From a virus (lineage: Duplodnaviria; Heunggongvirae; Uroviricota; Caudoviricetes), in IMG/VR virus record IMGVR_UViG_2579778919_000008: a stretch of DNA of 33,208 nucleotides. One strand, 5' to 3'. The notes beneath the pieces were generated by a model that saw nothing but the letters and a program-made list of their open reading frames with translations, searched no databases and was not told where the DNA came from. A program made the translations under genes and the position numbers. Below are positions 3,179 through 25,589 of the stretch, one piece after another; the first letter of the stretch is position 1, and every line of letters begins with the position of its first letter.

Positions 3179-4242
3179 AGCAGCTCTACCTCAACGTTTC
3201 CTAATCTGAGCCATTCGACTTTCGTGGCATCGATTATCGGTTGAATATTTGCCGATGGTGTAACGATGTCATAGTCGGTAATACCCGGAATTAGAGAAAT
3301 CAATGTCCCCGCCTGGCTGCGAATAAAAGCCACTCCAGGCTCTCGGCGCGAGTCATCGTCCTCCAGCGTTCCGGCGACAGCCTGTTTGGCTGCTGCGAGG
3401 GTGATGCCCTCCAGTGATACCTTCACGAGGACGTCAAATGTACGGATGACAGGCATGAGCACCAGCGTGTTTTTTGCTGTAACAGGCCGGACATCGTCAA
3501 TGTGAGCCTGCACCCTGTCGATCACATCCTGAGATGGCAGCCCACCTGTAGACGTGATCACAACATCAACGGTACCCGGCCCCCGCCGCAAAGGGTAAAC
3601 ATATGCGGCGGATACGCCTGATACCTCAAGCGCCCAGCGTTTGTAATCATATTTATTGCCGCCTGCAGGAGGTCGGCGGATGATTTCAAGCAGACGAGCA
3701 AGCAGCTCTGCATCCGTTTCCTCATCTGTTCCGCCAGTCATCAGGCCTACTGTCACTGTGCTGTCAAACCCATCAGGTGTTGTGGTCAGTGTGGCCGATG
3801 TGACGGAAGTGGTGTTACCAGTGGTTCCGGCCAGAGAAGATACTGCGTTTACCGATGATTTTCCATCTGACCCGACAATAATATCTTCGGTTGTTGTCCA
3901 CGAAACACTGTCGCGTTTGAACACAAGACCGGCAGCGGCCACCGCTCCTGGTTCGCCGGTAAACGTGGCAGGCCCGGAGGCGCTATTGGCTGCTTTTTTG
4001 CTTAAACCACGTAAACGGGCGTGCAGATAGAGGAATTCCGAATCAGCAGTATCCGGAAAGATCTGACGGACTATCCATCCCTGATTCTGATAAAGCCCCT
4101 CGGCAACACTGGCTACACTCGATGCCCGGATGTACCAGTCGCTGTCCGGGCCCAGCGTATCATCTGACAACTGCAGGAGATTTTTGATATCCCGCAGAAT
4201 GTCAGTGCGTATTTGCGCGGCATTTTTGGTAATGAATGGCAT
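3175..4242 (-). CDS. Baseplate J-like protein (Mu gp47-like)
   Basis: 355 aa; position and size; N-terminus MPFITKNAAQIRTDILRDIK typical of baseplate J family by recollection. Confidence 0.7.
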   Translation of the reverse strand: MPFITKNAAQIRTDILRDIKNLLQLSDDTLGPDSDWYIRASSVASVAEGLYQNQGWIVRQIFPDTADSEFLYLHARLRGLSKKAANSASGPATFTGEPGAVAAAGLVFKRDSVSWTTTEDIIVGSDGKSSVNAVSSLAGTTGNTTSVTSATLTTTPDGFDSTVTVGLMTGGTDEETDAELLARLLEIIRRPPAGGNKYDYKRWALEVSGVSAAYVYPLRRGPGTVDVVITSTGGLPSQDVIDRVQAHIDDVRPVTAKNTLVLMPVIRTFDVLVKVSLEGITLAAAKQAVAGTLEDDDSRREPGVAFIRSQAGTLISLIPGITDYDIVTPSANIQPIIDATKVEWLRLGNVEVELL

Positions 4243-4592
4243 CAGCTGACCTTAACCGGATATTTCCAGGTCTGCGGCGTTCCGCTCGCAGACGTGACGG
4301 TGATATGAAGCAGCATCCAGCCTTTTTGCCAGTGCTCTGCAGTAACGGAAATGGACTGGGCGCGACCGTCGTCAATAATCGGTTGCAGGGCCTGCCGCGA
4401 ATACTGCACTGCGAGTTGTTGAACGCGAGACACATCCTTTTCGCGGCGGAGTGTATGCAAAAGAGAGCCCAGAGTTGGATCAGCCCACCATGAGCCAAGG
4501 GGCGTCATCAGCCGTAAGTAGACGGCATTCGCTAAAGAGTCTGAGCTGTCGCCGGTATAATCGCCGGTCGTTGGATCAATCAACATTTCCAT
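4242..4592 (-). CDS. Small baseplate protein (Mu gp46-like, gpW/gp25-type)
   Basis: 116 aa ORF preceding baseplate J; 1-nt stop/start overlap (TGATG) with the downstream gene; first gene after the only sizeable intergenic gap in the tail module. Confidence 0.6.
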   Translation of the reverse strand: MEMLIDPTTGDYTGDSSDSLANAVYLRLMTPLGSWWADPTLGSLLHTLRREKDVSRVQQLAVQYSRQALQPIIDDGRAQSISVTAEHWQKGWMLLHITVTSASGTPQTWKYPVKVS

Positions 4593-4627
4593 GCCGTAAT
4601 ACTACCGGCATGGAAATTTAAATTATC

Positions 4628-4645
4628 GGTGAAGGGGTTCAGTGG
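4628..4645 (-). promoter_or_regulatory. Copy of conserved 18-bp motif (plus strand GGTGAAGGGGTTCAGTGG), candidate late-promoter activator site upstream of the gp46-like gene
   Basis: Identical 18-mer also at 24630..24647 upstream of lys and 16/18 match at 16473..16490 upstream of I; on the transcribed strand it is followed directly by GATAAT. Confidence 0.45.
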
Positions 4646-17347: not shown

Positions 17348-18630
17348 GATTTCAGCTCCAGCAGCTGCGTCGCGCGTTCAGATAACACATCACCAGGAGT
17401 GACGGTGGCACCGGCGTTCATCAGCGACAGACGCCAGCCATTGTCAGACTGCACACCACGCACCGCGCGGATACCGTTCTGCCCGGAGAGGAGCCACACC
17501 AGAGCATCATCATCAAGCCAGACACCCGCTGGCTGACGTAGCAGAACGGGAAGCTCTGACCACATCGGGCCTGGAGCCAGCCGGACATCCTCTTCGTGAA
17601 TGCTTAATGTGATCGCACCGTTAACACCACGCTCTTCGAGGCGATTCAGCAGCTCAGGCTGGATACCGCCAACGCGCCTCAGGTCGCCACGGGTCTTCTG
17701 CCGCACGCTGACGGTGTCGACCCAGCGACGCACATCATCGCTGACGGCATCCAGCACTGCAGGTTCAGACAGTGTTTCATGGATGGCCTGAGAGGCAATC
17801 CGGGGCGTGGTGGTTGCAGATTTATTCATAAGGCGCTGTCCGAGAGAAGAGAGCCAGCCCTGACCCGGATTGTGCCCGAATCCGGCATCAGGCGTGTAAA
17901 GCTCGCCGTTGAAGCGTAACGCCTTAACGTCACGGGTTTCTTTTGGTCCCCATGCCTGTTGTACCGTGACAATGTCCTGCTCCCACGATTTGACCTCAAT
18001 CCCCATGCGGTCAGCATCCGCCTGGGTTCTGGCGCGAATGCGGCACCGGCAGTGGTATCCGTCAGGCGGGTACATGAACTGCCACACAGGATCGTCATAG
18101 CGGGCAGTGAAACCATTGAGCCTAGCGTGGAGTGGCCGGGTGTGCATATCCATGACGGCCACGCGTTCCCATATGGGGCGAAACTCCGCGTTGGCCATCT
18201 GCTCCGCATAGCGACCAGCACCATACGCCGCCTGCATATTGGTTTCAAAGATGGTGTGCAGACGGCGTGGCGTAAGTTGTTTACCCTCCAGTACACCATC
18301 TTCATCGGCGACCAGCCTGGCACGGTCGGCAAGCCAGCCCTTACGGATCAACGTTGGGGTAATCTGCCGTTCGAAGTCCCGGAGCGTGCCGCCGTTAACA
18401 ATATGCTCGCGCAGCGATTGATGAATATCCTCAAGCACATCCTGTTTAAGGACGCCCGCCACGGTGAAACTGGTGGCGTGGGCGCGGGCTTCAACATCGT
18501 GCCAGTTAAAGCCGGTGGTGTAGCCCTTCGACTCAAAGTAGGCTATCGCTTCTTCGGGCTTTAACCCGATGGCGTACCCCAGATCAACATCAGCTTTCGG
18601 CATTGAGTCGCCCCCAGACCTCGCTGACAA
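17344..18630 (-). CDS. Head morphogenesis protein, Mu F-like (gp30-like)
   Basis: 428 aa; contains YPPDGYHCRCRIRA motif typical of Mu F-like proteins; follows the portal gene. Confidence 0.8.
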   Translation of the reverse strand: MSARSGGDSMPKADVDLGYAIGLKPEEAIAYFESKGYTTGFNWHDVEARAHATSFTVAGVLKQDVLEDIHQSLREHIVNGGTLRDFERQITPTLIRKGWLADRARLVADEDGVLEGKQLTPRRLHTIFETNMQAAYGAGRYAEQMANAEFRPIWERVAVMDMHTRPLHARLNGFTARYDDPVWQFMYPPDGYHCRCRIRARTQADADRMGIEVKSWEQDIVTVQQAWGPKETRDVKALRFNGELYTPDAGFGHNPGQGWLSSLGQRLMNKSATTTPRIASQAIHETLSEPAVLDAVSDDVRRWVDTVSVRQKTRGDLRRVGGIQPELLNRLEERGVNGAITLSIHEEDVRLAPGPMWSELPVLLRQPAGVWLDDDALVWLLSGQNGIRAVRGVQSDNGWRLSLMNAGATVTPGDVLSERATQLLELKS

Positions 18631-23700: not shown

Positions 23701-23929
23701 CGCGCACCTCTCTGGCTCGTTTGATGGACATGTGTTTTGATGCCTGGCTCTGTGCCACCCATGCGCCCAGATAAGTGAAATACAGCTCACCCGGTGTTTC
23801 GGGACGGGTTACGGTGATCCAGACCAGCACGAAGGAACTGACCAGGAAGGCCAGAAAAACGATGGTATCTGACGTTGAGAGACGACCTGTGGCCGGGTTC
23901 GTCACCAGATCGCGCAGAGAGATCGTCAT
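23666..23929 (-). CDS. Holin-like small membrane protein
   Basis: 87 aa with one hydrophobic helix; start overlaps the endolysin stop (ATGA); position in lysis cassette. Confidence 0.4.
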   Translation of the reverse strand: MTISLRDLVTNPATGRLSTSDTIVFLAFLVSSFVLVWITVTRPETPGELYFTYLGAWVAQSQASKHMSIKRAREVRDVGSSPENPEG

Positions 23930-24570
23930 AGCGCCGCCTTAGCGACATTCAGCCGCGCCACACGGTCGGCCTGACCTTCAGCCGGAGGGTTGATACGGCG
24001 GGTGACAGCCAGAAAATCGCCTTTGTCCGCCAGCTCGTTGCAGCCATTTGCCTTCCAGTACCAGGCAGCGCTGCGGGCTGCGTTGAGATATTCCAGTAAC
24101 AAATCGGGATTAGCGATGAGATCGAGGCCCAGCGCCTTACCGCAAAGGAGGTAATTATTGCGCAGAGTAATCTGAATCAGGCCACGCCCGCGAAAGCGCC
24201 AGCCATCGCCTGACGCTTCATTACCGTTACCACCCTGATTTGCGTAAACATAATTCGCCATTTTTTCAGAGTTACGGGTATAGCGGCGGGCAAATTCAAT
24301 CTCACTGGGCTCGATAATACGATTCTTATTGAGATCGAAGTCGCTGCGGAAAATACGCGCCACGCGCTCAGCATCTGAATAATAGAGATTTTCACTGAGC
24401 CGACTGAAACCCGCGCTCTCATGGCCGGTTTGAGCAATAAAGGCGGCAAGCCGGGCGGGCGTATTAATCTGGAATTCAGCGGTGGCTTTACTGAATGGTT
24501 CAAACCAGCGTTGCGCCATCACTGGCGAAAGGCCTGCTGCTCGCTGAAATTGTGGGAGTGTTAAAAGCAT
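23926..24570 (-). CDS. Endolysin, glycoside hydrolase family 19-like
   Basis: 214 aa; motifs FIAQTGHESAGFSRLSENLYYS and GDGWRFRGRGLIQIT match GH19-type phage endolysins by recollection. Confidence 0.8.
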   Translation of the reverse strand: MLLTLPQFQRAAGLSPVMAQRWFEPFSKATAEFQINTPARLAAFIAQTGHESAGFSRLSENLYYSDAERVARIFRSDFDLNKNRIIEPSEIEFARRYTRNSEKMANYVYANQGGNGNEASGDGWRFRGRGLIQITLRNNYLLCGKALGLDLIANPDLLLEYLNAARSAAWYWKANGCNELADKGDFLAVTRRINPPAEGQADRVARLNVAKAAL

Positions 24571-24629
24571 AACGCCATCCGGTTAAAAAGGGATGGCGTC
24601 AGTATTTCATCGAGTTAGGTGAATAATCA

Positions 24630-24647
24630 GGTGAAGGGGTTCAGTGG
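24630..24647 (-). promoter_or_regulatory. Copy of conserved 18-bp motif (plus strand GGTGAAGGGGTTCAGTGG), candidate late promoter upstream of lys
   Basis: Identical to the 4628..4645 copy; on the transcribed strand followed directly by TGATTAT; a 9-bp-stem hairpin lies between it and the lys ATG. Confidence 0.45.
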
Positions 24648-24648
24648 T

Positions 24649-25155
24649 TTATTGAGTAACATCAATTATCTCTACATCGTCACTTTCTTCAATATGCGAG
24701 GGAGGTGGGTTGTTAATTGCAAATTTACATTCCTTACCCTGTTTTATGTATGATTCACCCTGCGCATTCACAGTCTTAACATTATCAGTTTTTAATGAAG
24801 ATAGCCTTGCCATCCAATATGAGTAAGCAGTTGCTGGTAACGTAGCACAAGAGCTAAAAGGTGTAGGGTTTAAAAGAAGATTCTCCCCATACAATTTTTT
24901 CGCATCCTCATCAAGGAGGAGGAAATGACGACTCACTGCAACAACTTCAGGTGTAAGATATCCTAGGTTCTTGTACATATCAAAAACAGCAGTTGCACCC
25001 ATTAAAGTGCTCTGCGTTTCATTAAATATTCTTTTGGTTTCCTCAAGTTGATTTTTATAAGTTTCAACTGCTTTTGTATTGGGTACTGTTTTTGCTACTG
25101 CAGTAGTACTAAATACCACCAAGAAAAATGCCATATATCTCATTGCATTACACAT
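24649..25155 (-). CDS. AT-rich moron encoding a secreted/periplasmic protein of unknown function
   Basis: 168 aa with N-terminal signal peptide (FFLVVFSTTAVA-KT); markedly lower GC than flanking phage genes; start overlaps the mor stop (TAATG). Confidence 0.55.
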   Translation of the reverse strand: MCNAMRYMAFFLVVFSTTAVAKTVPNTKAVETYKNQLEETKRIFNETQSTLMGATAVFDMYKNLGYLTPEVVAVSRHFLLLDEDAKKLYGENLLLNPTPFSSCATLPATAYSYWMARLSSLKTDNVKTVNAQGESYIKQGKECKFAINNPPPSHIEESDDVEIIDVTQ

Positions 25156-25589
25156 TAGAATAATTTTCCTTGACTGTTACAACCTTTGTTTTTCTGCTGT
25201 GCAAGAAGTTCCCACGCAAAGCGATCACTGAATCCATACTTAGGGCAAAGAAAGGTCATGGCCATAAGAGAGGACGAACCCTGCTCACGCACCTCGGCGA
25301 ACTCGGCGAGAAAGCGACGATTACGTAATTCTCGAAGGGCACGATCACAGCGGGGTAAATAGAGGACTTCGCCGCCAAAATTCTTGATGAGTAATTGGGT
25401 TTTCTCATCGCCGATAGTATCGCGCAGGAGGGCTGCGCGGCTGGCCCCCATAGCGCGGAGGCCTTTACCTATCGGGAACGTGGTGCCACCAAAAGCAGAA
25501 AGAAGCTGCTCGGTCGCCGGGAAGCCTATCAGGTCAGCTATTTGTATCACTGCTGACGGCAGCAGCTCTGTTACCTGTTCCAGATTCAT
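25155..25589 (-). CDS. mor: Mor/C-family transcriptional activator
   Basis: Start at internal Met with GGGAG RBS; C-terminal signature GGEVLYLPR...RNRRFLAEF resembles the Mor/C GGxQVYIP motif. Confidence 0.65.
   Translation of the reverse strand: MNLEQVTELLPSAVIQIADLIGFPATEQLLSAFGGTTFPIGKGLRAMGASRAALLRDTIGDEKTQLLIKNFGGEVLYLPRCDRALRELRNRRFLAEFAEVREQGSSSLMAMTFLCPKYGFSDRFAWELLAQQKNKGCNSQGKLF

Follow-up and report, generated by a model that had tools for sequence, protein, structure and literature searches.

Predicted Mor-dependent late promoters nested in start-codon hairpins, and candidate leaderless late operons, in a Mu-like prophage

The viral DNA stretch IMGVR_UViG_2579778919_000008 (Caudoviricetes; 33,208 nucleotides (nt), at its full length called the window below) contains most of a Mu-like prophage, whose genes lie on the minus strand. 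An earlier note on this DNA had drawn attention to an 18-base motif and a hairpin ahead of the endolysin gene lys and had interpreted them as a candidate activator-dependent late promoter. The comparative analysis described here indicates that the motif marks three predicted late promoters, ahead of lys, gene I and gp46, and that each of them overlaps a hairpin involving the translation start of the gene that follows. The genes concerned are the following.

High-coordinate end of the window, minus strand: transposase A and B, followed by the early region.
26046-25534, minus strand: gemA, at the end of the early region together with the Mor-family gene.
25155..25589, minus strand: Mor/C-family activator gene (Pfam PF08765), the sole one of the window, whose product is the candidate to bind the motif.
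24649..25155, minus strand: AT-rich open reading frame (ORF) of 168 amino acids with a signal peptide, in a cargo-gene (moron) slot between mor and Plys.
23926..24570, minus strand: endolysin gene lys (glycoside hydrolase family 19), ATG at 24570 (Pfam PF00182; annotation of the related prophage L001).
15321..16436, minus strand: gene I (Mu-like prohead protease/scaffold), ATG at 16436 (Pfam PF10123, E = 3.5e-92).
4242..4592, minus strand: baseplate gene gp46 (Pfam PF07409), which heads the baseplate/tail-fibre operon.

The lys gene is the first of a lysis/head operon that continues with spanin, terminase, portal, F and G, and gene I is followed by head and tail genes, gp45, gp46 and then the baseplate and fibre genes. 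The true start of gp46 is the first ATG, at 4592 (MEMLID; ATGGA., kept in all relatives), and not the second. For comparison, 164 related loci were collected by searches with the window Mor and gp46 proteins. Among them, L001 is a prophage 95% identical to the window, located in ydbL of Escherichia coli FDAARGOS_1303, and L002 is the Klebsiella phage ST405-OXA48phi1.1, which is ∼76% identical. Distinct related sites numbered 29 in the lys class, 25 in the I class and 26 in the gp46 class, 80 in all. The features predicted at the three promoters are listed below.

24630..24647, minus strand: predicted Plys activator site CCACTGAACCCCTTCACC, kept in 29 distinct lys-class sites.
24625..24630, minus strand: weak −35-like CTGATT (cTGAnn), 18 bp from the −10; it includes bases that the earlier note had assigned to a −10.
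24601..24606, minus strand: predicted Plys −10, AATACT; [AG]A[TC]ACT stands 23-24 nt after the motif in 29/29 relatives.
24594, minus strand: predicted Plys start A, 7 nt past the hexamer, placed from the −10; the CCA there is conserved.
24570..24601, minus strand: lys hairpin, 5' arm 24601-24591, 3' arm 24580-24570.
16473..16490, minus strand: predicted PI activator site CCACTGAACCTCTTCATC, with 25 distinct I-class sites.
16444..16449, minus strand: predicted PI −10, TATCGT, 7 nt ahead of the I ATG at 16436; TAnnnT in 25/25 sites.
16435..16458, minus strand: PI hairpin with the −10 in its loop; the 3' arm consists of the 6-7 nt before the ATG plus AT.
4628..4645, minus strand: predicted Pgp46 activator site CCACTGAACCCCTTCACC, with 26 distinct gp46-class sites.
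4599..4604, minus strand: predicted Pgp46 −10, TAGTAT, exactly 6 nt ahead of the ATG at 4592; nAnn[AG]T in 26/26.
4586..4616, minus strand: gp46 hairpin of 11 bp, with the −10 in the loop and the start codon in the 3' arm.

The 18-mer, GGTGAAGGGGTTCAGTGG on the plus strand and CCACTGAACCCCTTCACC when read along the gene strand (minus), occurs exactly at 24630-24647 and 4628-4645 and with two mismatches at 16473-16490, as the earlier note had stated. A scan of both strands of the window, of the kind which that note had proposed as a check, returned only these three sites at three mismatches or fewer; the chance expectation for motif matches was 0.04, and three matches were reached in 0 of 100 shuffles. 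When the window was scored with a position weight matrix derived from 62 distinct related sites, the three sites obtained 43.6, 37.7 and 32.5 bits, all other positions 8 bits or less, and the shuffled sequences a maximum of 10.6 bits. A fourth site, for example a mom-type promoter, was sought at up to five mismatches and with the matrix, and none was found. All three copies are on the minus strand and fall into the rare non-coding gaps of the late region. The proposal that they precede the heads of late transcription units was upheld for lys, I and gp46, although the third late promoter of Mu heads P (gp44) and the third copy in the window heads gp46.

The motif is an imperfect dyad with the symmetric core TGA-N6-TCA and an invariant CCAC as its left flank, and positions A3-A8 and T14-A16 did not vary among the aligned sites. 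Some further relatives carry a right half TTCC instead of TTCA, and one relative has the perfect palindrome ACTGAAGTACTTCAGT at its site. An A/T-rich, ATAA-like flank was seen ahead of the motif in most relatives. The motif was present at the same three places in >50 loci, including ST405-OXA48phi1.1, whose Mor proteins are 59-99% identical to that of the window. The Plys and PI sites differed at 1.67 positions on average within a genome and at 3.11 between genomes (nominal permutation p < 1e-4), and such likeness within genomes is expected if one genome-encoded protein reads all sites.

The candidate for such a protein is the Mor-family product, which matched Pfam PF08765 with 35.3 bits (cut-off 24.9) and PHROG 836 'late transcriptional activator' with E = 1.5e-39; a phmmer search for a second Mor/C paralogue found none. 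Aligned to Mu Mor and C, it retains the GG..Y.P linker and the Y/S positions of the helix-turn-helix, and its conserved Y77 and P79 correspond to Y75 and P77, two DNA contacts of Mu C; in the C transcription complex the Y and P of the linker touch DNA. Its recognition helix is unlike that of Mu, which fits a different half-site. In L002 the Mor gene sits in an unannotated gap (L002 8395-8785) of the GenBank record, and record MK388859 carries no annotation of the Mor gene.

Downstream of the motif, a hexamer with invariant A2 and T6 was found 23 nt away (24 in one lineage) in 80/80 distinct sites, in the class-specific forms listed above. Taking this hexamer as a −10 at −12 to −7 places the motif at −53 to −36 and the dyad centre at −43.5 relative to the predicted start. 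The dyad centre lies 31.5 bp ahead of the first base of the hexamer at the window sites and at Mu Pmom (TTATGCC/CCAATAA, 31 nt, TAAGAT) alike, and for Mu C a 16-bp binding site has been described, an imperfect dyad with its centre at −43.5, in promoters possessing a −10 and no −35 (PMC2582627). In the −35 position, cTGAnn matches only the TGA of TTGACA, with a spacer of 18 bp, and a sigma-70 consensus scan called none of the three promoters. The lys and I classes, unlike the gp46 class, conserve T19 and A21; at Mu promoters, bases immediately following the dyad are reported to matter (PMC2582627). Comparative evidence and the match to the Mu geometry support the prediction of Mor/C-activated late promoters; the core of the earlier interpretation is well supported, and we read the three sites as putative Mor-dependent late promoters in a two-tier cascade. 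Two sigma-70-like sites, each with 9/12 matches, were noticed just upstream of motif copies and reading towards them, TTGAAG-16-GATAAT at 24665-24692 (−) ahead of Plys and CCGACA-18-GATAAT at 16491-16520 (−) ahead of PI; the total of such sites in the scanned region was no higher than in shuffled sequences.

The earlier note had placed the −10 elsewhere, directly after the motif (TGATTAT at lys, GATAAT at gp46), and if this were so the activator site would be at about −20 and leaders of 35-60 nt would include the whole hairpin, which might then modulate translation or stabilise the 5' end. GATTAT and GATAAT do stand directly after the lys and gp46 copies of the window; however, these sequences proved lineage-specific, an adjoining nAnnnT being present in only 22/80 sites, near chance, whereas the downstream hexamer is invariant at its fixed distance. 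The PI copy of the window has TGAACC at this place and its relatives GCGAAT, ACGCTA or GGGAAC, and a centre near −20 fits no described Mor/C promoter, which makes this arrangement very improbable. The identity of the binding protein was considered as well. CRP recognizes TGTGA-N6-TCACA and FNR TTGAT-N4-ATCAA, and class II CRP promoters also dispense with a −35. A host regulator of this family might therefore bind the motif in place of the phage Mor, as TGA-N6-TCA is the CRP/FNR core and 7/10 CRP core positions are matched at the lys and gp46 copies. Yet the invariant CCAC flank puts a C where CRP needs G5, C18 of the right half is variable (TCAAC, TCAAT, TCATA, TCCAC), and the centre is at −43.5 as for Mu C and not at the −41.5 of CRP/FNR class II promoters. 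Moreover, the variable positions change in concert within a genome, which indicates a phage-encoded partner, and the sites occur only before the late operons of phages encoding this Mor clade. Recognition by CRP or FNR is for these reasons highly improbable, and we retain Mor as the predicted activator.

The position of the hexamer has a further consequence at gene I and gp46. At gp46 the distance from motif to ATG is constant at 53 nt and the hexamer is separated from the ATG by exactly 6 nt; at gene I the hexamer precedes the ATG by 6-7 nt across relatives. Mapped late transcripts of Mu, deduced from promoter oligonucleotides carrying 20 nt downstream of the start, begin 7-8 nt past the hexamer (PMC4461284), and by this rule the I and gp46 transcripts would have the A of the ATG, or the nucleotide just ahead of it, as their first base. 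Both genes lack a Shine-Dalgarno sequence: their anti-Shine-Dalgarno energies are −2.8 (I) and −3.2 kcal/mol (gp46), most genes having −4 to −11, and their pairing with the 3' end of 16S rRNA is nearly the weakest of 30 genes tested. A leaderless gp46 mRNA and an I mRNA that is leaderless or has a 1-nt leader are therefore predicted.

The same arrangement was found at distant Mu-like gp46 loci, where nAnnnT stands 6-7 nt before the ATG in 36 of 43 non-redundant cases (chance 12%). Many of these 43 loci have unrelated upstream motifs, their median anti-Shine-Dalgarno energy is −1.7 kcal/mol, and in the two that have a GGAG Shine-Dalgarno sequence the hexamer is absent. As judged from these comparisons, the hexamer-ATG layout at gp46 is much older than the clade of the window, and the data suggest that different Mor specificities may serve a conserved promoter position. 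In gp46 loci from viral contigs (L088-L167) the hexamer, the 6-7 nt and ATGGA were kept and the upstream motifs differed, for example CTTAAACC-N4-5-CTGAAATACA. Some of these loci contain GCCGTCTGAA, which we take to be the Neisseria DNA uptake sequence.

Natural leaderless mRNAs of enterobacterial elements include lambda cI transcribed from PRM and Tn1721 tetR. These resemble the predicted I and gp46 mRNAs in a −10 located 6-7 nt before the ATG, in the lack of a Shine-Dalgarno sequence and in the requirement for a 5'-terminal AUG. They are, however, single regulatory genes, whereas here two structural late operons would be concerned, with a layout conserved in many Mu-like phages.

Each predicted promoter overlaps a hairpin. 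The 9-bp stem described earlier between the lys motif and the ATG (ACGCCATCC/GGATGGCGT, 24599-24591 and 24580-24572) is present, although only 1 nt, and not 2, separates it from the ATG, and it can be lengthened to 11 pairs, the A of the ATG included (−17.9 kcal/mol, z = −5.2). Its 5' arm takes in the final base of the −10 as well as the predicted start A24594, and its 3' arm holds the Shine-Dalgarno-like GGAUGG along with the A of the ATG. Among 30 distinct lys sequences, compensatory changes were seen in 3/9 pairs. As MAFFT misregistered the 3' arms of the lys leaders, a covariance-model alignment was used, which leans towards the modelled structure. The gp46 hairpin showed strong covariation: in 23 distinct sequences 7/12 pairs had changed on both sides, 77.5% of cells were paired as compared with 30-41% when the partners were slid, and the observed covariation was reached in 0/500 shuffles. 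The distance of the PI 5' arm varies by lineage, and these hairpins were therefore folded sequence by sequence instead of with a single consensus structure. Median z-scores by class were −4.9 (gp46), −4.8 (lys) and −2.3 (I). A search of the window against Rfam matched no family. One pair of the PI hairpin is lost in the window through a G-to-A change at 16441, as compared with L001 and most close relatives.

In modelled read-through RNA the probability of being unpaired was 0.00 for the gp46 AUG and 0.14-0.16 for the A and U of the I AUG, and both AUGs were free in the modelled leaderless RNAs. At the distant loci, AUG pairing was 0.77 as compared with 0.56 in shuffled controls (nominal p = 5e-6). 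The predicted starts lie in or after the 5' arms, so that a hairpin can be complete only in RNA coming from upstream. An effect on translation, as the earlier note had suggested for lys, is accordingly plausible, although probably by a different mechanism, since the late transcript itself is predicted to be without the hairpin. Since G-U pairs are tolerated in the stems and pairing of the start codon or Shine-Dalgarno sequence is common to all three hairpins, RNA and not DNA appears to be the level of action.

A source of read-through into lys is likely to be the 168-aa ORF. Its G+C content is 0.32-0.42, as compared with 0.5-0.6 in the flanks, and PHROG 29261 (function unknown) is its match. 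At one end its start and the mor stop overlap; at the other, its own stop is 1 nt from the Plys motif. The same slot of 300-550 bp was found in 74 related loci, where its occupants, small ORFs for secreted or membrane proteins, belong to at least five unrelated families; this identifies it as a cargo-gene (moron) cassette slot. A terminator scan predicted none between this ORF and the Plys motif or lys. Masking would plausibly be needed here, as the motif follows 1 nt after the cargo ORF, with no predicted terminator in between and the endolysin gene next in line.

Taken together, we favour, with a probability of about 0.62, a joint reading of Mor-site late promoters, leaderless I and gp46 mRNAs, and hairpins that form only in read-through RNA and restrict its translation. 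The early operon would make Mor, which would bind the 18-mer at −53 to −36 and recruit RNA polymerase to three sigma-70 promoters with a −10 and without a −35, thereby turning on the lysis, head and baseplate/tail-fibre genes in a two-tier cascade that lacks the separate middle step of Mu. Transcripts from PI and Pgp46 would start with the ATG, or a single nt ahead of it, and so be leaderless mRNAs; those from Plys would start at A24594, inside the 5' arm of the hairpin. RNA reading through from the early or cargo-gene operon, or from the preceding late operon, would instead fold into the complete hairpin, pairing the start codon in the case of I and gp46 and, in that of lys, the Shine-Dalgarno-like stretch together with the A of the ATG. 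In this way only transcripts from the Mor-dependent promoters would allow the first late genes, the endolysin above all, to be translated. In some relatives the hairpin may in addition terminate read-through.

Termination could also be what the hairpins are chiefly for, as terminators or 3'-end stabilisers of the upstream unit; by their overlap with the next promoter they would let through only transcripts that begin within them, and masking would be secondary or absent. In agreement with this, TTTTTT follows the lys hairpin in the Serratia-type relatives L010, L060, L062 and L064 and TATGCTTTT follows it in the window, and from the cargo ORF to lys there is no other predicted terminator. However, most relatives have no U-tract after the lys hairpin (TTCATGAA, TGTATGAC), from which termination is not the general role of the hairpin; these tails were judged by reading the sequences, as an automated U-tract count was confounded by outer pairs of the fold. 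The PI hairpins are followed by AUGAAAAA, a simple terminator scan called none of the three hairpins, and what the three classes have in common is that the start codon or Shine-Dalgarno region is paired, so that a mainly terminating role appears unlikely. A further possibility is action at the DNA level, a cruciform or melted repeat on supercoiled or replicating phage DNA exposing the −10 in a single-stranded loop and thereby helping or gating open complex formation. The −10 does lie exactly in the loop at PI and Pgp46, and a coupling of Mu late transcription to replication is reported (PMC12867686). But the Plys −10 lies outside the loop, meaning that this geometry is not common to all three sites, the 3' arms are consistently placed over the start codon or Shine-Dalgarno sequence, which is relevant for RNA only, and the tolerance of G-U pairs is RNA-specific, which renders such a role highly improbable. 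Reading the hairpins only as terminators or as DNA cruciforms accounts for some of the sites and not for all of them.

Several observations weigh against the joint reading of Mor-dependent promoters, leaderless mRNAs and masking hairpins. The window Mor has an identity of no more than 23-26% with Mu Mor and C. A PDB sequence search with it returned nothing at E ≤ 1, and the evidence for its family consists of the Pfam and PHROG profile matches and the alignment. The lys hairpin covaries modestly, with paired cells barely above the column-shuffle control (89.6% versus 87.7%); its 5' arm TGACRCCA hardly varies, which promoter function could explain, and the predicted gain in accessibility of the lys initiation region is small (0.36 to 0.50). 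The PI hairpin of the window is weak, with z = −1.4 as compared with −3.9 in L001 and the class median given above. At gp46 of L002 (29800) a GTG occupies the predicted leaderless start, where relatives have ATG, and in Enterobacteria mRNAs of this leaderless kind are rare and in many cases translated inefficiently. As the related sequences share phylogenetic history, the nominal p-values overstate their independence. Finally, we infer Mor binding, the start positions, leaderless translation and hairpin function, and with them every functional step, from sequence comparison.

Among known systems, the late promoters of Mu (Plys, PI, PP, Pmom) and its middle promoter Pm are closest to the predicted ones. 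They share a Mor/C-family activator, an imperfect dyad with a C-rich centre at −43.5, a −10 without a −35, and several copies heading late operons, two of them before lys and I; as at Mu PI, ACTGAC is read in the region after the −10. They differ in their half-sites, which are TGA...TCA with the CCAC flank in the window and TTAT...ATAA in Mu, as does the recognition helix. Furthermore, the window has one activator where Mu uses a relay of Mor and then C, it has no mom promoter, and two of its promoters are predicted to give leaderless mRNAs whereas Mu Plys and PI have leaders of ∼20-27 nt with a Shine-Dalgarno sequence.

Nested repeats were also found in Mu itself (L003). At Plys (10439-10492) a 5' arm CTGCCATCA, which begins at the CT of TAGACT and ends at ∼+1, pairs with TGATGGCGG, a stretch that spans the lys ATG (−13.9 kcal/mol, z = −1.7); at PI (18016-18068) a repeat extends from the CT of CAAACT to about the mapped start (z = −4.2), its 3' arm preceding and partly overlapping the Shine-Dalgarno region. 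A literature search found nothing on the motif, on leaderless late genes of Mu-like phages, on the Plys stem-loop or on these nested repeats of Mu; its coverage of the older Mu literature was incomplete, and prior mention is possible.

A principle like the one proposed is established in phage T4, where early read-through RNA of genes e, soc, 49 and I-TevI sequesters the ribosome-binding site and late promoters inside the hairpin give translatable RNA (PMC3014915). As modelled, the window hairpins resemble that of T4 gene e in masking the Shine-Dalgarno sequence or AUG in RNA from upstream, a lysis enzyme being the prime case in both. T4, however, relies on gp55-dependent TATAAATA late promoters. 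Those of the window are predicted to depend on sigma-70 together with an activator of the Mor family; two of them carry the −10 itself inside the loop, and for these a late mRNA lacking any leader is predicted. In the Mu Com-mom system, a hairpin masks the translation start of a late gene and the Com protein opens it (PMC6483171). In the arrangement proposed here no opening factor would be needed, as the choice of promoter would remove the 5' arm, and no com or mom genes were seen in the window.

The predictions thus combine two known principles, leaderless late operons and promoters nested in translation-masking hairpins. They provide a regulatory map for widespread, unstudied Mu-like prophages of Enterobacterales, with one activator, an 18-bp site whose predicted specificity is unlike that of Mu C, and three late promoters. 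If the predicted starts are true, these phages would contain a family of naturally leaderless structural operons in enterobacterial phages, and the T4 lysozyme principle would extend to sigma-70/Mor-dependent promoters. A simple explanation would then be available of why a randomly inserting prophage with a cargo gene directly upstream of its endolysin gene escapes accidental lysis. Whether Mu-like transposable phages generally gate late protein synthesis by transcript start, with Mor-family promoters firing at the start codon or a few bases away and nested in masking hairpins, is a more tentative matter, and we consider it possible but somewhat doubtful. If they do, their lysis and virion genes would be insulated from read-through from cargo-gene, early or host promoters, a special risk for phages that insert randomly into transcribed host genes, and the nested repeats at Mu Plys and PI would be a feature overlooked in the model phage. 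In practical terms, the signature of motif and hexamer can be used to correct gene starts, on which PGAP and other pipelines disagree, and to mark the boundaries of late operons.

One further ORF was observed in the gap between G and I. It encodes 72 amino acids (16470-16688, minus strand) with one transmembrane segment and a basic tail, matches a PHROG 'holin' weakly (E = 1.4e-5) and is kept in relatives down to 45% identity (L073). At its position in L001, PGAP calls an ORF on the opposite strand. In the window its last codons and stop overlap the PI motif, and in other relatives the stop comes earlier.

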